Under the pieces are notes generated by a model, which was not told the origin of the DNA, did no database searches, and saw nothing but the letters and a program-made list of their open reading frames with translations. Of a stretch of DNA of 64,000 nucleotides, positions 2,198-63,290 are shown in pieces. Origin of the DNA: Chrysomallon squamiferum (taxonomy: Eukaryota > Animalia > Mollusca). A program made the position numbers and the translations under genes. Where the stretch lies: the NCBI GenBank assembly GCA_012295275.1, contig CM022671.1:24924001-24988000 (forward strand), in the 5' to 3' direction. Position 1 is the stretch's first letter. Each line of letters starts with the position of its first letter.

Positions 2198-2760
2198 TCA
2201 GCACTGACATTTAGCTAAGCACTCAACTGTTAAAAGCGTGTCGCAGTTCCCAGCTTCAGGTATTTTAATACTAGTATTTTCACCAGCTTTATCACTTTTA
2301 CGAAAACAACAACAAAGTTTCCTTGTAGTGTTCCTGAAGTTTCGCATCAAAATAAAGTAAACAAATACGTTCATTAGAGGGCACATCAGTGACAGGAACG
2401 TAAGGACGATATTTACGACTATGAATTTCGTGCAACGCACGTACAATGCGAAAAGGTAACTGAGTCAAGATATGTATTATAAAAATTATGGTGTTTAATT
2501 TATACAAACGAATTTTACTTTCTGTTGCTCTGCTGTTATAACAGTTGGTTAAAATGGCAGATTTCTGGTGTAGAATTATCTTTATCATGCAAACTGTTAC
2601 AACTATAAAAGGATAACAATTAAACCGGATAAGTTAATTGCTCCAACCCACCAGTTACTAGAGTTATAGTCCGCTTCCATTCTCCCGGATTCTTCATTCA
2701 GACTATAAAATGTTCCTTCCAAAAGAGAGTACGTCAATGATATTGGAACCTAGATCCATA
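2198..2760 (-). pseudogene. R1: 5'-truncated 7TM receptor pseudogene (TM4 end to C-terminus), close paralog of R2
   Basis: ORFs 2298..2588 and 2198..2446 carry ESKIRL...LPF and PLMNVFVY...MRNFR in different frames. The nucleotide sequence is near-identical to R2 9480-9830. It has a TGG>TAG stop in the W-I-W-V-P motif (~2750), a 1-bp deletion at ~2611 and a 2-bp deletion at ~2430. Homology ends at ~2760, where a (GTA)n tract begins. Confidence 0.9.
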
Positions 2761-2769
2761 AGTAGAAGC

Positions 2770-7519: not shown

Positions 7520-9281
7520 ATGTAAAATACGCTAAGAAAAATCAAATGGAATAATTAAAAAGAATAACATGCTGTTCCAAAGGTAATATATTTTTTATTC
7601 ATTTAGTTTCAAAATTATACAATTATTTATCACGTATTACATTAATGAACATTTGTACTAATGAAAATATTATACAACAATTTCTTATTCGAGTAGATTA
7701 CCACGGTGTCTTGGCTTTTCATAAATTTTCTGGATGAATTAAGATATAACAATTACTACAAAAAAAAACCAGATGAGTGTAAATAATCTATTTATCCACA
7801 GTGTAATTAGAAATAATTTAGTTTCTTCGGGAAATACAATCTTTTAAGTAATGGAAGATTAACGTACATCAAATTATATATTTTTTCATATAAAAAAAAT
7901 CTTTTTTGTTTTCGTCTTTGAAAAATAGATTCTCTTAACAAAGAACTTTTTGCAGAAAACCTTTTAAAAAGCTGCTTCTCATTTCTGAAAAACCAAATGA
8001 CAGCAACAGAAATCTGAAAATTAATTTAACCTAGCACTGCATTCAACAACTTATTAACGATATTAGAGAGGTTTGGCACATCGTGATCCTTTCACGTATG
8101 CAGTACGGGTCATCAACGTAACTCGCTTTCACCTTGGCTTTCACGTAAAGCACAAAGCTCATATCAAAATACGTCAAGGAAGGGAAGTAACTATAGCTCT
8201 AGAACTCACAAAAAGGTTTATTTTGATATAATATATAATATAAATATATTTGGTTTGAACATGTATAAGATATTCAGTGCTTATGTTGCCAAATGACCAA
8301 AAATCAATAACAGGTTCTCCATAGATTTTGAAAGAAAAAAAATACAGGCCAATTGTATTCAGATAAAAAGCTATGAAAGACATCTTGGAGTCATTTTAAT
8401 ATGTTGTTATTGCCGTTTCTGATCATGTATAATTTTGTCACATACCAGTTATCTCTTATTCACTTCTTTCGCAACGGTATATTACACAGAGAACTATAGA
8501 ATGGCCAGTATTTTCGCTTGCGAACAAGTATATGTTTCGTCTGTTCTCAGCAAGAAGCAAAACATCTTAAGGCAATATAAGCGTCAACAACGTTAATGTA
8601 ATAAAACTATTTTTCCAAGTGTATATTAGTAATCGTAATCTTGTTCAGCCAATGGTGCAATCGTACCAACCAAGGCTTTTTGGGGGAGAAGGAGGTCTGT
8701 CTTTGACGGTCATTTATCCGAAAACGATGCAAGAAAATGCACCTTAAAAAGCACTAATACGTGCAGAGATAATTAAAGAAATCATAAAAACAAGATACAA
8801 CCTTCATAATGTTTCACAAAATTACTATAACGATACGGAAATGCACACGTGTAAGAGCTTCGCTATACGTAGACACGTGCCTATAGCCTTGTCTCGTTTC
8901 GAGGAAATCTCGCGAGAAAAGACGATACGGGTTCGGTACGTGATAGTAACGTCTATGCTAAACCTTTCTGATATGTTTAACGTACGTATCAGAAGCACAG
9001 TTCATACAGCAAAACATGATTCACGTGTCAAAGTTAACAACAAGCTAAATTAAAAAAGTCAAATATTATTTGTAATGATTATTACATCATTCCCGCGATC
9101 ATCAGCGATTTTGCACCGTTATCTTTCTACTACTGATGAGAAACATGTCCAGTAAAATAGTATTAACTGTTACACCGTCTTTATTGTTGTTGTTATTGTT
9201 AGTCGTCATCGTCGGCATCTTCATCGTCGTCGTCGTTGTTTTTTGTTGTTGTTTCTTGATATTTTGAATAAAACTCAGTTG

Positions 9282-10216
9282 TTAAAAGCTTGTAACATTT
9301 TCCAACTTTATTATCCTAATTCTTGTATCTTGATTCTTTTTATTGTCGCCTGTTTGATCACTTTTGCGAAACCCACAACAAAGTTTCTTTGCAGTGTTTC
9401 TGAAATTTCGCATCAGAGTTAAGTACACAAAAACATTCATCAGAGGGTAAATCAGTGAAAGAAAGTAAAGACGATACTGATGACCATATCTTTTATGTGC
9501 AAAGCACGTACAATACGAAAAGGCAATTGAGACAAGATATGTATGATAAAAATTATGGTGTTTAATTTAGCCAAACGAATTTTACTTTCTGTTGCTCTGC
9601 TATTATAACAGTTGGTTAAAATTGTAGATTTCTGGTGTAGAATTATCTTTATCATGCAAACTGTTACAACTATAAAAGGGATAACAACTAAACCGGATAA
9701 GTTAATTGCTCCAACCCACCAGTTACTAGAGTTATAGTCCGCTTCCATTCTCCCGGATTCTTCATTCACTGCATAAAATGTTCCTTCCAAAAGAATGTAA
9801 GTCAGCGACATGGGAACCCATATCCAGATCCCTGCCAAGTAGATCATCACTCGTTTGACTGAAATATGAATCTGGTATTTGAAAGGATCGCATATTGCTA
9901 TAGACAACATAATGCTTAGTCCCATAAGAGAAAAACATTTAATGATTGTGAATGCGTTACCAAAAGCGAATAGAATTCGCATTTTCGAGCTAAAGCGATC
10001 AACGGTGATAACTGAGAAAATTATAATGTTCAAGCCTATGTCAGCCAAAACTTCGTTCACCATGAATTTGCCAATAACGCCATTACACATCCTGGATTTG
10101 AAAAGTATCAACAGTATGAACAAATTGTTTGAAAATCCCCACGTTGCAACAGAATAAGTCACGAATAAAATATATCCCGAAATGGTATGAGATGTGTTAG
10201 TTACACTGTTATCCAT
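9282..10216 (-). CDS. R2: intronless class A-like 7TM receptor with one 1-bp frameshift in TM7 (pseudogene or assembly error)
   Basis: The 254 aa ORF 9452..10216 stops at TFFH*. Adding one base at TTC TTT CA (~9457) restores LIYPLMNVFVYLTLMRNFRNTAKKLCCGF...TSF* ending at 9282, giving 311 aa, the same length as R3. Confidence 0.8.
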
Positions 10217-11302: not shown

Positions 11303-11818
11303 ATGTAACAACGATGTTAAACTAACACGATCATAAGACAAAGATACTGAACTAACGCCATCATGTAACAAATACTGAACTAACGCCATCATGTAACAAA
11401 TGCTGAACTAACACCATCATGTAACAAATACTGAACTAACGCCATCATGTAACAAATGCTGAACTAACACCATCATGTAACAAATACTGAACTAACGCCA
11501 TCATGTAACAAATGCTGAACTAACACCATCATGTAACAAATACTGAACTAACACCATCATGTAACAACGATGTTGAACTAACACCATCATGTAACAAATA
11601 CTGAACTAACACGATCATAAGACAAAGATACTGAACTAACACCATCATGTAACAAATACTGAACTAACGCCATCATGTAACAAATGCTGAACTAACACCA
11701 TCATGTAACAAATACTGAACTAACACCATCATGTAACAATGATGTTGAACTAACACCATCAGGTAACAAATACTGAACTAACACCATCATGTAACAAAGA
11801 TGTTGGACTAATACCATC
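11303..11818. repeat. Minisatellite, ~28 bp unit TGAACTAAC(G/A)CCATCATGTAACAAAT(A/G)C, ~18 copies
   Basis: Head-to-tail near-identical units with occasional 30-bp variants and no unique spacers. Confidence 0.95.
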
Positions 11819-11889
11819 AAATTCTTAAAATATTCCATACCAATTTTGATTTTCAAGTGAAGATATTATAATGGCCATATATTATTTAT

Positions 11890-12783: not shown

Positions 12784-14906
12784 TTCGGAAGTTTAAAAAT
12801 CAGTTTCGCGCTCTCCGAATTAGAAGTTTATTTTATTATTAGCAAATGTCCATGCTGAGGCAAAAAATAGAAGAAAAAAATAGCAATAATTTCTAAACAT
12901 ACAAAATGCTTTTAGACAATTTATTTATACACTACAGATGCACTTTAACACAATTCTTTATTCATTATTTATCGTTGTTGCTTAATCTTAAGTTTGAATT
13001 CTATTTAATCTAAAAGAAAATAATATTAGTATTCACTGTTGGAGGTCTGCTCAGATGGACATTTCGACTGGCAACGATTCCGTTTAGTTTACTCATTTAA
13101 CAATAAATGAGTCGTTGATTTATATCAGGGGTCTTGGATTTCTTGTTGTAGCGTGTGTATGTACTACTGCATGGTCAAAACAGTTTTTATTTCTGGCTTA
13201 GAACCAGCGATTTAAATACAAATGTCTCTCTGAGCTGTTCTCAAGAGGATACTCAGGCTGTATGTTTAAATTAATGTTTTTATTTCAATATAATTGCGGA
13301 ATCATGTAATTCGGATATGTACTGGGTTGGACAGTGAATTTCACGAAAGGAGATTTAATTATTGTGCTGTATATACTAACCTTCAAAACGAAATGATTTT
13401 CATTATAAAGAAAGAAGAAAAGAAAACCCCCCAAAACTTCGGTCTCGAAATTAAAACCAAGTGTGCGGGGCCCTTGAGCAACGTTTAGAATTATGAAATA
13501 TTTTCTCAGGTGGAAATATAAAAGATGATTAAATAAACTGTTAAAAAGACACGCTTTATGAGCTAGACAGATGGCAATGTGTGTGACAAGGATGCAGCTG
13601 TGATTAAGAACCTGAAAAATAAGCTTAGTCTTCTGTCTTAATGTATTAACACCGTTCATGTTTTTAACTCGTAGTGAGACTAATTATTTGATGCGAAGGT
13701 AACAAAATACGTAGAAGCTAATTGTAATAAACCAGTTCTCTATTTCGAACAATGCTGTTACGAGTATATGAAGCTCATAATTCTAAAACATTATATGGAG
13801 AAATATGCTATAAATGATAAATAAATTTCTGTTACCGAAGAAAACTGATTTCTTTTTTTCGCGTAATAATTTGAATGGAAGTTTACAAGAAGTTTTTCCA
13901 AGTGCTTGATTTTGAAGAAAAAAAGAATGGCATATTTCTACAAGGTTTTATTGTGTTATAATATTAATCCGTTAAATTTTGTAACCTTTTTAATTTCCTT
14001 TTGTTTTTAAAAACATCTTTATGCAAGACATACAACTGTAAGTCAAATGATAATAAAATTTATTTTCGAATAAAAATAATAATGAACATTCGATAATACA
14101 TTTATTTATTTATTGTGAATTTAATGAAATGTATAATATACATGGTAAGCATGTGTTTCTTGTGCGTATGTTGTGTGTGTGTGTGCTTTGTGTGTGGGTG
14201 TGTTTGTGTGTATATTGTGAGCAAAACATGCGCTTAGTGTATATATACATACACATATATCACGTCAACCTTAACTATGTTAATTGGTGTAATCTAAATA
14301 TCTATTGTCTATGTACTGAAATCTATGAACTTATGTTTCACTGTCTACATCAAGATACATGTATTCACACGTGAAAAACAACGCTAGCTTCTTACTCTTT
14401 TCTTTTTCCTTTATTCTAACTAATTGGGGAGAAGGAAATCATGCTAATTTACTGTAATCTTGCTTCGTGTCAAATATATTTACAATAATACCTTCTCCCA
14501 CTTGATTAACATACGTCTTCTGCGTGATGTCCAGTGAGGTGTCCAGAACATGACAAATTAAATATTATTTTCTTTTAACATTAGCAAGGCAAAGTTCTGT
14601 TTAACAGAGATCGTATATGATACACTTTTGTAAATTTATCTCTGTATATAATTGATATACCAGAGAGAAACTCTATATGGCTTTGCAAGTGTAAAGAAAT
14701 AACTCTGTCTACTGAAGAAAACAGGTAACTGTAAATCAATGAAAAGTGAAACTAGATTAGAAAAAATATTTGAGTAATCAGGATATTTCCATTCTAAGAT
14801 ACTTTAACATCAGTAAAAAGGTGGAAAATTACCTGCATTTTCACCGTTTCACAAAAGGAAAACAAAACAAAAAAAGAAAAAAGGGAAAAAACTTTCGATA
14901 ACGAAT

Positions 14907-15842
14907 ATGGCCAATAACGAGACTAATACATCCATGGTGATTCCCATGCATATTCTAGGAGCCAGTACTTTTATTCTTGCTTGGGGATTTTCAAGTAACA
15001 TTTTCATGCTGTCGGCTCTGGTTAAGTCGAAGATGACCCGCGATATCATAGGTCAGTTCATGGTCAATGAAATATTCGCGGACATGTCTTTGCATCTGAA
15101 CACTGTTGTATTTCTTATTGTCAGCTTCTACACTCCAGAACTAATGTTTGGAATGGCTTTAGTTGTCGCCTTCGCGGGTATCAAATGTTTTTCTCTGATG
15201 GGGTTAAGCATCGTCCTCTGCATTGCCGTGTGTGATCCATTCAGATATCAAGTGCACATAACTGTGAAAAAGGTTAAAATATGTCTGGCGACAACCTGGT
15301 TCTGGATTCCCTTGGCGCTGTGTTACGTATATCTTGAAGGAACATTTTACAGAATTAATGAATTTTCTAACAGACTCGATCCCAACTACACAGCCGATAA
15401 CTGGTGGGTTGGAGTTCTTAATTTGTCAACCGTCATCGGCATCCCTTTCGTTGTAATCACGACCTGTATGGTTAAAATAGCCAAACACCAGAATGCTGCC
15501 ATTTTGAACAACTGCAACAACAGTCGAGTAACTGAAAGCAAAATTCGCTTGGCTAAGTTAAACACGGGTGTTTTCATTCTGTACGTTTTGTCTCAGTTTC
15601 CCTTTCACATTGTTCTTTCTCTGCATGTCATTAATCCTTTTATACTGGCGACTGGAGTTTTCTTTTACTTAATGTATCCCTTGATGAAACTCTTGCTCTA
15701 TCTGGCCTTGATGAGAAATTTCAGACGTGCAGCAGCGCAGATGTGTGGATGTGGAAAAACAAACGTGAAGAGATTGGATCGTTCCGGGACAAGTGTTTCG
15801 ACGGTAACAAAAAGCTGTGCGTCTTTAGTAACAGTTAAATAG
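14907..15842 (+). CDS. R3: intact intronless class A-like 7TM receptor, 311 aa (candidate chemoreceptor)
   Basis: Seven hydrophobic segments, N-terminal N-glycosylation sequons, GFSSN (TM1), NEIFAD (TM2), IAVCDPFRY (ICL2), W4.50, P5.50, SQFP (TM6), YPLMKLLLY...NFR (TM7/H8). Confidence 0.92.
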   Translation: MANNETNTSMVIPMHILGASTFILAWGFSSNIFMLSALVKSKMTRDIIGQFMVNEIFADMSLHLNTVVFLIVSFYTPELMFGMALVVAFAGIKCFSLMGLSIVLCIAVCDPFRYQVHITVKKVKICLATTWFWIPLALCYVYLEGTFYRINEFSNRLDPNYTADNWWVGVLNLSTVIGIPFVVITTCMVKIAKHQNAAILNNCNNSRVTESKIRLAKLNTGVFILYVLSQFPFHIVLSLHVINPFILATGVFFYLMYPLMKLLLYLALMRNFRRAAAQMCGCGKTNVKRLDRSGTSVSTVTKSCASLVTVK

Positions 15843-18623: not shown

Positions 18624-19595
18624 ATGACGGTGAACATATCGAATACCTCTGATCTCATACCTCCTTTAGGAGCGAGTTGTTCTGTGATACTGTGGGGATT
18701 TTCAAACAACATCTTCATTCTGATGATTCTTGTAAAATCCAGGATGGTTTTCGGTGTGATCGGCCACTTCATGGTTAACGAGGTTATTGCCAGCATGTTG
18801 CTGCATTTAAACACTGCGACTCTGCTAATCGCTAGTTACTATGCTTCACATGTAATATTTAACATGGCGTTAGTGCCTGCCTTCTCATCGGTAAAATGTT
18901 TTACCATGATGGGGTTAACCATCGCTCTGTGCATTGCTATATGTAACCCTTTGAAATATCATATCCATATCACAAAGACGAGAGTGAAAACATATTTGGC
19001 AGTAATATGGCTGTGGGTTCCTGTTGTGTTATGTTTCATATACTTGGACGGGACATATTTTGAGTTCAATGAACAGTCGAAAAGACCTGATCCCAGTTAT
19101 ACTTCAGAGAACTGGTGGGTTGGGTTAATTAATTTATCCGGCGTAGTTGCTGTTCCTTTGATTGTAATCACTGCATGTATGATAAAAATAACCAGACATC
19201 AAAATGCAGCAGTTTTAACCAGCTCTTACATTAAGAGGACGACAGAAAGCAAAATTCGTTTGGCTAAGTTAAACACGATAGTTTTCATTTTGTACATCTT
19301 GTCGTACTTACCATTTCACATCGTTTTGTCGCTTCACATTGTGGACGCTGTAGCTTTTGGATGCATGGCTTTTCTGTATTTCATCTACCCGTTGTTAAAA
19401 CTGTTTGTTTATTTAGCTTTGATGCGAATATTCAGGACCACTGCAGTAAACATTTGTTGTTTTGGTTGTAGAAATAAAACAAACGACGATACATCAAATG
19501 TTCTTAGAATAACAGCAAAATCGGCTGAAAACAAAGATTTCCAAGATATTCGAATGGTCGTTAGCAGAGGAAAAGAGCAACAAGGCACGAATTAA
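18624..19595 (+). CDS. R4: intact intronless 7TM receptor, 323 aa
   Basis: Same motifs as R3 (GFSNNIF, NEVIAS, KCF, IAICNPLKY, NWWVG, ESKIRLAKLN, YPLLKLFVY). Confidence 0.92.
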   Translation: MTVNISNTSDLIPPLGASCSVILWGFSNNIFILMILVKSRMVFGVIGHFMVNEVIASMLLHLNTATLLIASYYASHVIFNMALVPAFSSVKCFTMMGLTIALCIAICNPLKYHIHITKTRVKTYLAVIWLWVPVVLCFIYLDGTYFEFNEQSKRPDPSYTSENWWVGLINLSGVVAVPLIVITACMIKITRHQNAAVLTSSYIKRTTESKIRLAKLNTIVFILYILSYLPFHIVLSLHIVDAVAFGCMAFLYFIYPLLKLFVYLALMRIFRTTAVNICCFGCRNKTNDDTSNVLRITAKSAENKDFQDIRMVVSRGKEQQGTN

Positions 19596-23599: not shown

Positions 23600-24568
23600 A
23601 TGACACCAAACGTGACTAATGCATCCGAAACAATACCTTTGGGTTTAATAGGAGGAAGTGTCTCGGTCATGATATGGGGAGTGTCGAACAACATCTTTAT
23701 ACTGATGATTCTGGTAAAATCGAAGATGTTTTTTGGAGTCATAGGCCAGTTCATAGCTAACGAGGTTCTAGCTGATATGGTTTTACATCTGAACACGGCA
23801 GCGTTTCTAATCGCTAGTTTCTACACGTCGAAATTATTGTTTTCTATGGCTTTCGTCGCCGCCCTGGCTTCCATTAAAAGTTTTTCTATGATGGGGTTAA
23901 GCATATCTCTCTGTGTTGCTGTGTGTAATCCTATAAGATACCACATACATATTTCTGTGAGACGAGTGAAGATTTACTTGGCGACGACGTGGCTGTGGGT
24001 TCCCGTGGCGTTGTGTTACATCTATCTTGAAGGTTCATTTTACAAGGCGAACCAACGTTTGAAAAAACTGTTTCCCAATTACACTCGTGACAACTGGTGG
24101 GTTGGTGCATTTAACATGACGGGCATAGTCGTGATTCCTTTCATTGTAATCACATTCTGTATGACAAAAATAGCCAGACATCAAAGTGCTGCAGTTTTAG
24201 CCAACTCTTACCTCAAGAGGACAACGGAAAGCAAAATTCGCTTGGCTAAGTTAAACACGATAGTGTTCATTCTGTACGTCTTATCTCACGTTCCGTTTCA
24301 CATCGTTTTCTCGCTTCACGTTCTCGAACCAGTTGTCTTTGGAACCATGACTTTCATTTACTTCATCTATCCACTGATGAAACTCTTTGCTTATTTGGCT
24401 TTGATGAACATTTTCAGACGCACAGCAGCAAAGATTTGTTATGGCGTTTGTACGAATAAAACAAGTGGAGGCAATGTTTCCGACCACACGACAATAACAG
24501 CGGAACCGGCTACAAGTCGAGATATTCATGAAGATGTTGACCTGTGTGTTGGTAAGACAAGAAATTGA
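23600..24568 (+). CDS. R5: intact intronless 7TM receptor, 322 aa (ATG at 23600; the ORF track uses an upstream TTG)
   Basis: MTPNVTNAS start aligns with paralog starts, and all family motifs are present. Confidence 0.92.
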   Translation: MTPNVTNASETIPLGLIGGSVSVMIWGVSNNIFILMILVKSKMFFGVIGQFIANEVLADMVLHLNTAAFLIASFYTSKLLFSMAFVAALASIKSFSMMGLSISLCVAVCNPIRYHIHISVRRVKIYLATTWLWVPVALCYIYLEGSFYKANQRLKKLFPNYTRDNWWVGAFNMTGIVVIPFIVITFCMTKIARHQSAAVLANSYLKRTTESKIRLAKLNTIVFILYVLSHVPFHIVFSLHVLEPVVFGTMTFIYFIYPLMKLFAYLALMNIFRRTAAKICYGVCTNKTSGGNVSDHTTITAEPATSRDIHEDVDLCVGKTRN

Positions 24569-33664: not shown

Positions 33665-34618
33665 TTATCGTATGATACTGAGTTCTGCACACTGCTGAAT
33701 GTATGCTGTGTCTGTAAGCGACTGTCTTGCTATTCTAGGAATCTCCGACCTATTGTCACTTGTTTTGCTCGTACACATGTAACAACAAATCTTCACTGCA
33801 GAGTTTCTGAAATTTGGCATCAAAGTCAAATACACTACCAGTTTCAGCAACGGGTAGAGAAAATAAATAAAGATCATACATCCAAACATGATGGGATCGA
33901 CGATATGAAGAGCGAACAGAATGTGAAAAGGCACTTGCGATGTTACGATTAAAATAAAAACAATCGTGTTTAAATAAGCCAAGCGAATTTTGCTTTCCGT
34001 TGTTGTCTTAAAGTAAGAATTGGTTAAAACTGCAGCACTTTGATGTCTGGTTATTTTTATCATACATGCAGTTATCACGGTCAAAGGAATAGCAACTACA
34101 CCTGTCATGTTAAGAGCCCCAACCCACCAGTTCGTTGAAGTGTAGTTAGGATCGAGTCTGTTGGAATGTTTGTCTACTTTGTAAAATGTTCCTTCTAAAT
34201 AAACGTAACACAACACAGTAGGAACCCACAACCAGATTACTGCCAAATAAATCTTCACTCTCTTCTTTGTAACATGAACGTGATATTTTAACGGGTTACA
34301 TACAGCGACACAGAGGATGACGCTTAACCCCATCAGAGAAAAACATTTAACAGAGGCAAAGGCTGCAACTAAAGCCATTCCAAACATTAGGTTTGGCTCG
34401 TAGAAACTGGCTATCAGAAATGTGGCAGTGTTTAAGTGTAACATCACATCGGCCAGAAGCTCGTTAGCAATGAAATGTCCTATGACGCCGAAAATCATCC
34501 TGGATTTTACAAGAATCATTAGTATGAAAATGTTGTTGGAAAATCCCCATAATATGACACAGCTGCTTGCGACTGCAGTATGCTTAGAGATGTTATCAGA
34601 AATATTTGTTGCATTCAT
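33665..34618 (-). CDS. R6: intact intronless 7TM receptor, 317 aa from the ATG at 34618 (in-frame upstream ATG at 34705)
   Basis: MNATNIS start aligns with paralogs. Motifs: GFSNNIF, NELLAD, KCF, VAVCNPLKY, NWWVG, ESKIRL, YPLLKLVVY. Confidence 0.92.
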   Translation of the reverse strand: MNATNISDNISKHTAVASSCVILWGFSNNIFILMILVKSRMIFGVIGHFIANELLADVMLHLNTATFLIASFYEPNLMFGMALVAAFASVKCFSLMGLSVILCVAVCNPLKYHVHVTKKRVKIYLAVIWLWVPTVLCYVYLEGTFYKVDKHSNRLDPNYTSTNWWVGALNMTGVVAIPLTVITACMIKITRHQSAAVLTNSYFKTTTESKIRLAYLNTIVFILIVTSQVPFHILFALHIVDPIMFGCMIFIYFLYPLLKLVVYLTLMPNFRNSAVKICCYMCTSKTSDNRSEIPRIARQSLTDTAYIQQCAELSIIR

Positions 34619-39212: not shown

Positions 39213-40143
39213 ATGTCTGTGAACGTAACCAATATCTCTGACACCACGGCTACACGTATGTTGTTAGCGGGAAGCTCTGTTTTACTGTTTGGATTTTCAA
39301 ACAACATCTTCATGCTGGTAGTTCTTGTAAAATCTGCAATGAGTTCTGGTGTCATTGGTCTGTTCTTGGTTAATGAAGTTGTGTTAGACATGATGCTGCA
39401 AATCAGTTCAGAGATGTACCTCATCGCCAACGTCTTCCAGTTAAAGTTTGTCTTTACAACGGCTTTGATACCTGCAGTATTATCAGTTAAATGTTTCTCT
39501 ATGATGGGCTTGAGTATAGTCCTGTGTATTGCTATAATCAACCCTTTGAAATTTACAATTTACGTGACAAAAAGAGAGTGAAGATATATATGACAGTAAT
39601 CTGGCTCTGGGTTCCCTTGGTGTTGTGTTATGTTTATTTAGAAGGAACGTTTTACACGGTGAATGAACATTCAAAGAGACTCGATCCTAACTACACTTCA
39701 ACGAACTGGTGGGTTGGGGCTATTAACATGACAAGTGCAGTTGCTATTCCTTTGACTGTGATTACTGTATGTATGATAAAAATAACCAGACATCAAAATG
39801 CCGCAATTTTAATCAATTCTTACATTAAGAGAACGACTGAAAGCAAAATACGTTTGGTTAATTTGAACACTATCATTTTCATCATGTACATCCTTACACA
39901 GTTGCCATTCCATGTCGCTTACTCCCTTCATATCGTTCATCAAAGCCTAGTGATATCAGTGATAATTATCTACCTTCTATACAGTCTAATGAAGCTGTTT
40001 GTTTATTTAATTCTGATGCGTAATTTCAGATATACCGCGACAAGATGTGTTGTTTTGTTTGTATGAACAAAACAAGTGCCAAAACTACCAGGGTTCCCTC
40101 AGTGAAAGCCGTACCGAATGGTAACACTGACATAGCTGTATAA
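39213..40143 (+). CDS. R7: full-length 7TM receptor with two 1-bp deletions in A-runs (pseudogene or assembly error)
   Basis: ORFs 39114..39581 and 39491..40066 are joined by adding one A at ACAAAAAGAG (~39570). A second A at GCGACAAG (~40042) restores KMCCFVCMNKTSAK...DIAV*, as in R9/R10. Confidence 0.8.
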
Positions 40144-47929: not shown

Positions 47930-48580
47930 ATGATGTCTGTGAACGTAAAGAATAACTCTGACACTACGTCTAAAAAAATTGTTAGCGGAAAGTTCCGTTA
48001 CACTGTGTGGTAGTTCTTCCAAAATCTGCAATGAGTTCTGGAGTCATTCGACTGTTCTTGGTTAATGAAGTTGTGTAAGACATAATGCTGCAAATCAATT
48101 CAGAGATGTACTTCATTGCCAATGTCTTCAAGTGAAGGTTTGTCTTGACATCAGCTTTGATACCCGCCGTATCATCAGTTAAATGCTTCTCTGTGATGGG
48201 CTTAAGTATAGTCCTGTGTATTGCACAACCATTTGAAATATATTGTATATGACACAGTGAAGAAAGTGAATATATACATGACAGTAACCTGGTTCTGGTT
48301 TCCCTTGGTGTTGTGTTATGTTTATTTAGAAGGGACATTTTTCACGGTGAATGAACATTCAAAGAGACTCGATCCTAACTACACTTCAACGAACTGGTGG
48401 GTTGGGGCTCTTAACGTAACAAGTGCAGTTGCTGTTCCTTTGATTGTGATTACTGTATGTATGATAAAAATAACCAGACATAAAAATGCTGCAATTTTAA
48501 CTAATTCTAACGTTGAGCAACCGACTGAAAGCAAAATACATTTGGCTAATTTGAAGACAATCATTTTCATCACAACATGA
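47930..48580 (+). pseudogene. R8: 7TM receptor pseudogene, truncated at TM6
   Basis: The MMSVNVKNNS start is followed by a frameshift and a 26-bp deletion in TM1 relative to R10. In-frame TAA (gtg taa gac) and TGA (aag tga agg) occur, and homology ends after IIFI at ~48572. Confidence 0.9.
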
Positions 48581-49222: not shown

Positions 49223-50149
49223 ATGTCAGTGAACCTAACCAATTCCTCTGACGTTTTAGCTAAAGGATTTACTGCAGGGGGAAGTTCTGTTATACTGTTT
49301 GCCTTTTTAACGAGTGTCTTCATACTGGTAGTTCTTGTAAAATCTGCAATGTCCTCTGGAGTTATTGGTCTATTCTTGGTTAACGAAGTTGTGACAGACA
49401 TAATTTTTCAAATCAGTACAGTAATATATTTTAGCAAGTCAAAATTTCTCTTCTATTCGGCTCTGATTACTGCCTTAGCATCTGTTAAATGTTTCTCTAT
49501 GATGGGATTAAGTATAGTCCTGTGTATTGCGATTTGCCACCCATTCAAATATCTTGTACATGTTACACAGAAGAAAGTGAAGATATATATGGCAGTAATA
49601 TGGCTCTGGGTTCCCTTGGTGTTCTGTTACGTTTATTTAGAAGGAACCTTTTTCACGATGAATGAACATTCAAAGAGACTTGATCCTAACTACACTTCAA
49701 CGAACTGGTGGGTTGGGGCTCTTAACGTAACAAGTGCAGTTGCTATTCCTTTGACTGTGATTACTGTATGTATGATAAAAATAACCAGACACCAAAATGC
49801 TGCAGTTTTAACCAATTGTTACGTTAAGGGAACGACTGAAAGCAAAATTCGCCTTGTTAATTTGAACACGATGATGTTCATCGTGTACATACTAACACAA
49901 CTGACATTTCATGTCGCGTACTCCCTTCATGTCGTTGATCAAACGCTAATGATACCAATGATAGTTATCTATCTTTTCTACAACTTGATGAAACTCTGTG
50001 CTTACATACTTCTGATGCGGAATTTCAGATATACCGCGATGAAGATGTGTTGTCACGTTTGTCTGAACAAAACAAGTGCTAAATCTATCAGAGTTCCCTT
50101 CGTGAAAACCGTGCCGACTGGAAACACAAACATACAACAAACTGTGTAA
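49223..50149 (+). CDS. R9: intact intronless 7TM receptor, 308 aa
   Basis: Family motifs NEVVTD, KCF, IAICHPFKY, YLEGTF, PNYTSTNWWVG, ESKIRL, LMKLCAY...NFR. Confidence 0.92.
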   Translation: MSVNLTNSSDVLAKGFTAGGSSVILFAFLTSVFILVVLVKSAMSSGVIGLFLVNEVVTDIIFQISTVIYFSKSKFLFYSALITALASVKCFSMMGLSIVLCIAICHPFKYLVHVTQKKVKIYMAVIWLWVPLVFCYVYLEGTFFTMNEHSKRLDPNYTSTNWWVGALNVTSAVAIPLTVITVCMIKITRHQNAAVLTNCYVKGTTESKIRLVNLNTMMFIVYILTQLTFHVAYSLHVVDQTLMIPMIVIYLFYNLMKLCAYILLMRNFRYTAMKMCCHVCLNKTSAKSIRVPFVKTVPTGNTNIQQTV

Positions 50150-56460: not shown

Positions 56461-57401
56461 ATGATGTCGACGAACGCAACCAATATCTCTGACACCACGG
56501 CTACACGTATGTTGTTAGCGGGGAGTTCCGTTATACTGTTTGGATTATCAAACAACATATTCACACTGGTAGTTCTAGCAAAATCTGCAATGAGTTCTGG
56601 TGTCATTGGTCTGTTCTTGGTTAATGAAGTTTTGTCAGACATAATGCTGCAAATCAGTTCAGAGATGTACTTCATCACCAACGTCTTCAAGTTAAAGTTC
56701 ATCTTGACATCGGCTTTGATACCCGCCGTATCATCCGTTAAATGTTTCTCTATGATGGGATTAAGTATAGTCCTGTGTACAGCTATCTGCAACCCTTTGA
56801 AATATATTGTATATGTTACAATGAAGAGAGTGAAGATATATATGACAGTAATCTGGCTCTGGGTTCCCTTGGTGTTGTGTTACGTTTATTTTGAAGGAAC
56901 ATTTTTCACGATGAATGAACTCACTAAAAGAGTCGATCCTAATTACACTTCAACGAACTGGTGGGTTGGGACTATTAACATGACAAGTGCAGTTGCTATT
57001 CCTTTGATTGTGATTTCTGTATGTATGATAAAAATAACCAGACATAAAAATGGAGTAATTTTAACGAATTGTTACCTTAAGAGAACGACTGAAAGCAAAA
57101 TTCGCTTGGCTAATTTCAACACGATCATTTTCATGATGTACGTCCTGACACAGTTGCCATTTCATGTCGCTTACTCCTTTCATATCGTTGATCAAAGCCT
57201 AGAATATCACTGATAATTATCTACCTTTTACACAACTTGATGAAACTCTTTGCTTACATATTTCTGATGCGGAATTTCAGATATACCGCGCTGAAGATGT
57301 GTTGTCACGTTTGTCTGAACAAAACAAGTGCTAAAACTACCAGAGTTCTGTTAGTGAAAACCGTGCCGACTAGAAACACAGACATACAACAAGCTATATA
57401 A
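56461..57401 (+). CDS. R10: full-length 7TM receptor with one 1-bp deletion before TM7 (pseudogene or assembly error)
   Basis: The 250 aa ORF stops at QSLEYH*. One added base at CTA GA ATA (~57203) restores ISLIIIYLLHNLMKLFAYIFLMRNFRY...QQAI* ending at 57401. Confidence 0.8.
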
Positions 57402-62549: not shown

Positions 62550-63290
62550 CGTTGTTTGTCACATACGTCGACAACAAACAAAGGACAACATGTCAGTTAA
62601 GGTATTTTCTGTTTCACATTTACATTGTTTTGAGCGATATGAAGAGCATCTTGACGATTAGAATAAAAACTACAACGTGTGAATTAGTCAAGTGAAATTT
62701 TGATTTCTCTTGTTCTGTTAACACAAAAAAAACAAATTGTCTAAAACTGAAACATTTTGATGTTTGCCAACTTTTCTGATACATTTAGTAATTAAAAAAA
62801 AAGGAACAGCAACTACACTTGTCATGTTAAGATCCCCAACCCACCATTTCGTTGAAGTGTAGTTAGGATTGAGTGTCTTCGAATGTTCATTCACTGTGTA
62901 AGAACATCCTTCTAAATAGACATAACACAAAACTACAAGAACCAAAGCTGTGTTACTATCAAATATATCGTCACTCTCCTCTTTGCAACATGAACGTGAT
63001 ATTTTAACCGGTTACATACACCAACACAGAGGAAAAAAACATTTAACAGAGGCAAAGGATGCAACCAAAGTTATTACAAATAGAAACTAGCTATTAGAAA
63101 TGTTTAAATGTCAAATCATTTCGGCTAGAAGCTCAATGGCCATAAAGTGACCAATAGCAGAGAAAGACATCCTGGATCTTTCAAGAATCATCACTTATGA
63201 AAATATTTGGAAAATACTCATAATACAACATAGCTCTTGCAAGTAAATTACCTTCAAAGAGGATATCAGCGAGATTAGTTACATTTGCCT
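62550..63290 (-). pseudogene. R11: heavily decayed 7TM receptor pseudogene (R6-like)
   Basis: Fragments ANVTNL, MILERSRMSFSAIGHFMAIELLAEMI*HLN and CYVYLEGCSYTVNEHSKTLNPNYTSTKWWVG lie in shifting frames. The upstream flank 63560-63790 resembles the R6 upstream flank 35810-36050. Confidence 0.85.

Follow-up and report, generated by a model that had tools for sequence, protein, structure and literature searches.

Class A (rhodopsin-like) GPCRs encoded in tandem in the genome of the snail Chrysomallon squamiferum have replaced the DRY, CWxP and NPxxY motifs with a different set of residues. Since these changes are fixed, are under purifying selection and, judging by the sequences of relatives, are old, the activation mechanism of the receptors is very likely non-standard, unlike the DRY/CWxP/NPxxY relay of the textbooks. 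Class A receptors are held to share one activation pathway, to which the DRY, sodium-pocket and NPxxY residues belong; departures from it are known in individual receptors (DP1, C5aR2) or in classes apart (TAS2R). In the present case, it is an entire family that carries a coherent alternative set under selection in two snail subclasses. A first-pass annotation of the same DNA had reported altered motifs, and the replacements that it described are real; it omitted the rebuilt sodium pocket, the shift of the TM7 proline, the missing TM3–ECL2 disulfide and how old the family is.

The receptor cluster and its class A numbering

The window, that is, the whole 64-kb stretch of DNA analysed, is AT-rich (GC 25–35% in 2-kb bins) and abundant in microsatellites. 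Searches of the window by tblastn and by profile identified one receptor gene in eleven tandem copies, numbered R1 to R11 from left to right and distributed over both strands, the coding region of each copy being a single exon:

R1, 2222..2761, minus strand: broken 3' fragment, 87% identical to R2 in DNA
R2, 9282..10216, minus strand: frameshift as assembled near 9461; MLS in place of DRY, with N7.49 and K3.39
R3, 14907..15842, plus strand: intact class A GPCR reading frame in one coding exon, 311 aa; the gene studied here
R3 residues: E55 (2.46), D59 (2.50), K93 (3.39), V103-L104-C105 in place of DRY, C187-M188 (5.57–5.58), Q230 (6.48), P258 (7.46), K261 (7.49) and Y265 (7.53)
TESKIRL in R3, 15531..15551, plus strand: seven residues at the cytoplasmic end of TM6, present in 8/8 copies
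R4, 18624..19595, plus strand: intact, 323 aa; Ser in place of D2.50, with E2.46, K3.39 and K7.49 retained
R5, 23600..24568, plus strand: intact, 322 aa
R6, 33665..34618, minus strand: intact, 317 aa
R7, 39213..40066, plus strand: single frameshift in an A-run near 39572; short tail
R8, 47930..48580, plus strand: pseudogene with stops and frameshifts, ending within TM6
R9, 49223..50149, plus strand: open, 308 aa; N1.50 replaced by Ser, P6.50 by Thr, and TM7 without Pro
R10, 56464..57401, plus strand: single frameshift near 57204, as assembled
R11, 62654..63285, minus strand: decayed pseudogene

Five copies (R3–R6 and R9) are open as assembled, three (R1, R8 and R11) are decayed and three (R2, R7 and R10) are frameshifted, and this mixture of intact, frameshifted and decayed members makes the birth and death of copies evident in the cluster. 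The earlier statement that reading frames stay open across the paralogs holds for these five and for R2, which is open over 311 aa with the base seen in four of four public runs, and does not hold for the decayed copies or for R7 and R10 as assembled. Read depth is raised at the R2 break, where near-copies elsewhere may contribute. Single bases are absent from the window near 9461 (R2; all four runs have the base) and near 14742 upstream of R3 (three of four runs). The assembly may carry small deletions at these two points, and the break in the A-run of R7 may be of the same kind; the R7 frameshift may reflect either a pseudogene or an assembly error. The flanks of R7–R10 are mutually about 75–82% identical and therefore point to an origin by recent duplication. 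The comparison with public runs covered R2 and R3. Contigs from four of these runs (three studies) span R3, with at least two coding differences listed there, both synonymous, and sequencing or assembly error was accordingly rejected as the source of the R3 motifs.

Several further features of the locus were recorded. At least 32 bases are identical between R3 (15534–15565) and R5 (24227–24258) over the ESKIRLAKLN codons, with dS about 1.2, and the public contigs of three of the four runs break at this shared stretch; a short gene conversion is possible, as is chance combined with codon bias. A GA-rich motif (GAAGARGAA-like) lies about 15 bases upstream of the ATG in R4, R5, R7, R8, R9 and R10 and may represent conserved sequence of the 5' UTR or of a splice element. 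Beside R2, positions 8500–9300 show read depth several-fold above the single-copy level and many loose ends, marking an interspersed repeat of unassigned kind, and a minisatellite of 28-base units in about 17 copies occupies 11320–11819. Rfam and ARAGORN returned no match in the window.

The window copies have the class A fold. R3 scored 39.2 bits against Pfam 7tm_1, for which the curated gathering cut-off is 30.5, and four of the five copies scanned passed this cut-off, R9 falling below it at 22.7 bits. A profile of the window copies matched H2R among solved structures (E 2.5e-9). The AlphaFold model of R3 built with relatives in the alignment (pLDDT 79, pTM 0.77), which superseded an earlier fold from window copies alone (pLDDT 53), contains seven helices, an ICL2 helix and helix 8, with a continuous TM3 at 80–109, ICL2 at 111–117, TM5 at 166–200 and TM6 at 206–238. 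It superposes on class A structures with a best Z of 24.6 and an rmsd of 2.6 over 252 aligned residues, at only 10–20% identity to solved receptors. The superposition, compared by its end points in TM1 and helix 8, agrees with N31 as 1.50 and F272 as 8.50 under A2A numbering and under H2R numbering counted from the profile alignment.

The remaining reference positions of R3 are D59 (2.50), L104 (3.50), W131 (4.50), P180 (5.50), P232 (6.50) and Y265 (7.53). Across the eight near-complete copies these anchors are N1.50 in 7/8, D2.50 in 7/8, and W4.50, P5.50, Y7.53 and F8.50 in 8/8; P6.50, which the first-pass annotation had used as an anchor, serves in seven copies and is Thr in R9. In the same alignment, Arg occupies the L104 column in 20 of 21 unrelated class A hits and Gln in the other, a 22nd hit (P0013) having been left out as an unalignable protein that is not a GPCR. 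The TM3 of R3, K93-C-F-S-L-M-G-L-S-I-V-L104-C-I-A-V-C-D-P-F-R-Y, is in register with S3.39-x-x-x-L3.43-x-x-I/L3.46-S3.47-x-D-R-Y-x-A-I-x-x-P-L-x-Y. BLAST and HMMER place a four-residue gap within TM3, which would pair K93 with 3.35, because the D2.50-to-3.50 span is short in the window copies (45 residues in 7/8 and 41 in R9, versus 51–53 in eight controls). The continuous modelled TM3 and the longer ECL1 of Haliotis relatives indicate that the shortening lies in ECL1 and that K93 is 3.39, an assignment made by counting along the continuous modelled helix and from a MAFFT alignment. Among nine well-aligned copies there is no Arg or Lys at residues 94–112, no Tyr in TM5 (166–200) and no Trp in TM6 (208–243). 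A register shift that would restore DRY, Y5.58 or CWxP was therefore rejected.

Replaced motifs, relatives and constraint

Position 3.50 is Leu, 5.58 is Met, 5.57 is Cys and 6.48 is Gln, Tyr or His, never Trp, in all eight near-complete copies, and C3.51 is present in seven. R3.50, Y5.58, W6.48, P7.50, S3.39, N7.45 and C3.25 occur in none of the eight, and N7.49 in one. Positions 7.49–7.50 read KL in seven copies and NV in R2, as also in the fragment R1; the TM7 proline lies at 7.46 in place of 7.50 in five of eight; and neither C3.25 nor an ECL2 Cys is found in any copy, so the TM3–ECL2 disulfide is absent. All strings previously listed for these motifs (VLC, ALC, SLC, ILC or MLS for DRY, IPxxVITxCM, S/T-Q/Y/H-x-P, and KLxxY or NVxxY) are present in the copies, and the reported loss of R3.50 withstands both the DRY-bearing controls and the AlphaFold superposition, neither of which restores an Arg. 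Of the three relay residues R3.50, Y5.58 and Y7.53, the first two have been lost, and Tyr is retained at 7.53 in eight of eight.

Other positions also vary or stand out. In R7, R9 and R10, the youngest subclade, the TM7 proline is gone (Ser or Asn at 7.46) and K6.35 is lost; R9–R10 has the highest pairwise dN/dS (0.41), with R9 also lacking N1.50 and P6.50, and this subclade may be decaying or functionally diverging. At the top of ECL2 and TM5 (R3 15339–15422), G145, Y161, N165-W-W-V-G169 and N172 are invariant in 8/8 copies, an N-glycosylation sequon lies at 160 in most copies, and the model shows an ECL2 hairpin; the hairpin and invariant residues may hold the lid in the role of the absent disulfide. 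The window copies carry Pro at 4.54 in place of the usual TM4 proline, which lies later in the helix.

An exhaustive HMMER profile search returned 34 proteins. In a quick tree of 14 relatives and 16 DRY-type proteins, which has SH-aLRT support alone, long branches, motif columns included and proteins cut at 420 aa, and from which P0012, P0013, P0014, P0019, P0020, P0029, P0033 and P0037–P0048 were left out, twelve relatives (ranks 1–11 and 15) join the window copies in one clade that excludes the 16 DRY-type receptors (SH-aLRT 97), the eight window copies included form one clade (97), and these group with the Gigantopelta protein and one further protein (99), a placement that makes a neomphaline source of the window probable. 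R2 is the earliest-branching window copy in this tree. The named relatives come from Neomphalina (Gigantopelta aegis) and Vetigastropoda (Haliotis rubra, H. asinina and H. cracherodii):

XP_041374360.1, Gigantopelta aegis, named 'melatonin receptor type 1A-like'
XP_046566010.1 and XP_046549402.1, Haliotis rubra
XP_067682765.1 and XP_067649064.1, H. asinina
XP_071114834.1 and XP_071102321.1, H. cracherodii

The RefSeq relatives are 19–28% identical to R3 where aligned, and their RefSeq names disagree, ranging over melatonin, opioid, somatostatin and adenosine receptor-like and uncharacterized. Leu or Met at 3.50, Lys or Arg at 7.49 and Tyr at 7.45 are found in 12/12 relatives, and Glu, Gln or Lys replaces L2.46 in 11/11 that could be aligned. 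A motif change private to the C. squamiferum genome was rejected on the residues at 3.50 and 7.49. Position 5.58 varies among the relatives (Ala, Val, Phe or Tyr), which makes Met5.58 a peculiarity of the window branch, and C3.51 occurs in only two of the twelve and is thus not a defining state of the family. On this sequence evidence, the motif replacement appears old and spans two gastropod subclasses, Neomphalina and Vetigastropoda, whose split is Palaeozoic.

Word-index protein searches with R3 and with the window alignment gave no match, and with the relatives added they gave two, the already known P0015 and a Ptychodera protein outside the clade; metagenome contigs yielded 71 pattern matches and no confirmed relative, and the ESM Atlas only generic class A clusters. 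Because the relatives were reached only by exhaustive HMMER search, the taxonomic range of the family is under-sampled. Titles and abstracts in the literature, where coverage of subscription journals was thin, held no description of the family or its motif set, and no paper on K7.49 in receptors was found; the motif strings were absent from one supplement of PMC11886862, and the available parts of PMC13174522 and PMC11526382 gave no information on the motif set.

The copies are under purifying selection. All 21 pairwise dN/dS values lay between 0.09 and 0.41, some of them at a dS close to saturation, and a codon model over eight copies gave an omega of 0.27–0.28 and rejected omega=1 (2dlnL 303, 1 df). 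The claim that the motif changes are fixed under constraint is thus upheld, dN/dS not being near 1 across copies, and neutral decay was rejected on this omega and on the motifs shared with relatives. The inner half of the receptors accumulated fewer changes per site than the outer half (1.47 versus 2.35, p=1e-6). The 43 positions of the class A common activation pathway, as given in the available part of PMC6954041, are conserved in the copies though their residues are non-standard, with a mean of 1.16 changes versus 1.96 at other sites (p=0.0003) and versus 1.59 in the rest of the inner half (p=0.018). The 13 replaced motif positions, taken by themselves, exceeded random sites in conservation only by a borderline margin (p=0.059). 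All copies have L3.50, encoded by three different codons, and E2.46, encoded by two, in a set where 59 of 256 sites are invariant and a single invariant site is little proof; TESKIRL is the longest invariant run among the window copies. The cytoplasmic face and the pathway positions are the most conserved parts of the receptors, and as the pathway positions also belong to the buried core, a folding constraint could explain their conservation.

Charged residues at the sodium pocket and candidate modes of signalling

The sodium pocket comprises positions 2.50, 3.39, 7.45 and 7.49 in PMC6954041, as far as its available part goes. R3 has four charges mid-bundle, E55 (2.46), D59 (2.50), K93 (3.39) and K261 (7.49), with His/Gln/Asn at 2.54, and Glu2.46, Asp2.50, Lys3.39 and Lys7.49 are the buried charges at sodium-pocket positions, the lysines being predicted to fill the usual sodium site. 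At least one pocket Lys and at least one acid are kept in every near-complete copy, R2 lacking K7.49 and R4 lacking D2.50, and seven of eight are basic at both 3.39 and 7.49. E2.46 accompanies K/R3.39 in all eight window copies and in the two closest relatives. In the other nine alignable relatives, a small residue occupies position 3.39 and 2.46 is Gln (seven), Lys (one) or Glu (one), the last being P0010, the sole exception to the pairing in having Glu without Lys. These distributions suggest that K7.49 is ancestral in the family and that K/R3.39 and E2.46 were added in the branch comprising the window copies and Gigantopelta. The retention pattern fits a required ion pair, and it represents one or two evolutionary events, not independent repeats. 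Outside the clade, the DRY-type control receptor P0034 has Lys7.49 (MKPA), so K7.49 has arisen elsewhere too.

The first-pass annotation had inferred from the fixed motif changes a non-standard signalling mode (altered G-protein coupling, arrestin bias, scavenging or a heterodimer role). Non-standard activation is sustained by changes that are fixed, old and selected, but none of these modes follows from the loss of R3.50, since DP1, V2R R137L and TAS2R4 signal without it. DP1, with ECW in place of DRY, is Gs-coupled (PMC12508460); in V2R, R137L puts Leu at 3.50 as here, and the mutant is constitutively active (PMC4814114); and TAS2R4 binds gustducin while bypassing DRY and NPxxY (PMC13172528), each as described in the available portion of its source. 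In the window copies, four of five common G-protein contacts (3.53, 3.54, 5.61 and 6.33) keep ordinary residues, Ala or hydrophobic, position 34.51 is hydrophobic, no copy departs from K6.30 or R6.32, and the TM5–ICL3–TM6 stretch has a net charge of +4 to +6.

Taken together, we lean, by a little, towards these proteins being G-coupled receptors of chemosensory type, in which a rewired switch and a buried-lysine off-lock would replace Na+, and which would form an old tandem family of snails; this reading draws on sequence, model and analogy. Loss of D/E3.49–R3.50, L2.46 and W6.48 would remove the usual restraints on the inactive state, and Lys7.49 and Lys3.39 would pair with the pocket acids, restoring an off state that needs no Na+. 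On binding, a ligand would then break or re-pair the Lys–acid bridges, as K2.54 does in DP1. Y7.53 would pack on a hydrophobic L3.50/M5.58/L3.46 surface in place of the Arg–Tyr–Tyr bond network, and the Gα C-terminus would be taken by the conserved ICL2 (P-hydrophobic-x-Y), I5.61, L6.33 and the basic end of TM6. That the window receptors are chemical sensors is probable from the genomic pattern, in which tandem copies and pseudogenes go with a variable outer half and the absence of the disulfide.

A bolder form of this reading, which we hold tentatively and would not yet bet on, is that of a built-in cation solution: Lys7.49, and later Lys3.39 with Glu2.46, would have replaced the allosteric Na+, the receptors would still signal without R3.50, Y5.58, W6.48 and NP, and the family would predate the Neomphalina–Vetigastropoda split. 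If true, nature would have arrived at a second, sodium-independent way of activating class A receptors, with graded intermediate forms in Haliotis, Gigantopelta, R2 and R4, and with lysines at the very positions that engineers use to freeze receptors.

Four other readings have to be weighed. It is unlikely, if a serious contender, that the receptors are arrestin-coupled and G-protein-independent in the manner of C5aR2, with Leu3.50 unable to engage Gα, a Cys3.51–Cys5.57 link stiffening TM3–TM5, and signalling or uptake proceeding through arrestin. The trio described for C5aR2 recurs here (L3.50 in 8/8, C3.51 in 7/8 and C5.57 in 8/8), the tails of the five open copies hold 8–11 Ser/Thr in 39–59 residues, and the conserved cytoplasmic face would fit an arrestin partner equally well. 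The F7.53, broken ICL2 helix, short TM5/TM6 and uncharged cavity described for C5aR2 are nevertheless absent from the window copies, which have Y7.53, a modelled ICL2 helix, long TM5/TM6 and a basic TM5–ICL3–TM6 stretch, and C3.51 is rare among the relatives. We think it quite improbable that Lys3.39 and Lys7.49 hold the proteins permanently inactive as scavengers, decoys or heterodimer partners. Such a lock would agree with the inactivating N7.49R in M4 and S3.39R in M2 (PMC7055379), given that most copies are basic at both positions, and the structures closest to the model are mostly antagonist-bound or inactive, a weak point as the model was built without ligand or transducer. Against it, two acids balance the two lysines, unlike in the engineered mutants; conservation is highest in the cytoplasmic face and at the pathway positions; the natural pocket Lys of DP1 mediates its activation (PMC12508460); and a diversifying outer half in many copies suits sensing better than a single decoy role.

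There is little to recommend the idea that the receptors are constitutively active and set a basal G-protein tone that ligands may turn down. V2R R137L behaves constitutively in the available part of PMC4814114, and D/E3.49, L2.46 and W6.48 are all lost, but the pocket lysines point to a compensating off-lock. Least credible by far is an artefact of misnumbering, or pseudogenes drifting from the motifs: three of eleven copies are decayed and two more are frameshifted as assembled, R9 lacks N1.50 and P6.50, and identity to solved receptors is low, yet the omega is 0.27–0.28, all twelve relatives share Leu/Met3.50 and Lys/Arg7.49, the L104 column holds Arg in 20 of 21 control GPCRs, and no basic residue lies within eight positions of 3.50.

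The family offers natural variants at single pocket positions (Lys or Asn at 7.49, Asp or Ser at 2.50, Lys or a small residue at 3.39). Such a series could show which microswitches G-protein coupling needs, and whether Lys can act as a reversible sodium mimic. For invertebrate receptors, automatic names such as 'melatonin receptor-like' are unsafe, and so is the rule that no DRY means a decoy.

Comparison with known systems

ACKR1–4 and C5aR2 are vertebrate receptors, and the nearest named relatives of the window copies are orphan gastropod proteins, in a tree without ACKR or C5aR sequences. The RefSeq gastropod relatives share Leu3.50, Lys7.49, Tyr7.45 and a polar 2.46 with the window copies, the Haliotis forms differing in having neither K3.39 nor E2.46. 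C5aR2 has L3.50–C3.51 and a reported C3.51–C5.57 disulfide, is G-protein-incompetent and uses arrestin only, according to the available part of a preprint whose text and legend number the Cys differently (bioRxiv 10.1101/2025.11.01.685996). It resembles the seven window copies in which Leu3.50–Cys3.51 occurs with Cys5.57; unlike them, it keeps D3.49 and NP and has F7.53, short TM5/TM6 and a hydrophobic cavity.

Lophotrochozoan class A expansions have been put forward as candidate chemoreceptors (Nath et al. 2025, PMC11886862). As reported in the accessible part of that paper, which includes gastropods, they resemble the cluster in their tandem full-length, truncated and pseudogene copies, in an outer half more variable than the inner and in the lack of a TM3–ECL2 disulfide, but they keep DRY and NPxxY, both of which are lost here; motif loss is thus not routine for such genes. 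Compared with a single-species expansion, the family has apparent counterparts in two gastropod subclasses and is therefore older, and its members may sit unnamed in the external data sets of PMC11886862.

In the engineered receptors, the new Arg of N7.49R (M4) or S3.39R (M2) forms a bridge to D2.50, imitates Na+ and keeps the receptor inactive, N7.49R nearly abolishing M4 signalling (PMC7055379, available part). The two mutants carry a basic side chain where the family has its pocket lysines; however, each is a designed single substitution by which a normal receptor is inactivated, whereas the lysines of the family occur naturally, are fixed and have a second acid as partner. DP1 is likewise a class A receptor without R3.50 and most motifs and with a natural sodium-pocket Lys, K2.54, which fills the pocket in the inactive receptor, turns towards the agonist upon activation and is needed for signalling through Gs (PMC12508460, as available). 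It differs in that its Lys lies at 2.54, a placement called unique in that paper, whereas the family has Lys at 3.39 and 7.49 and an additional acid at 2.46, and in keeping the TM3–ECL2 disulfide that the family lacks; the likeness is one of analogy, and no kinship is claimed.
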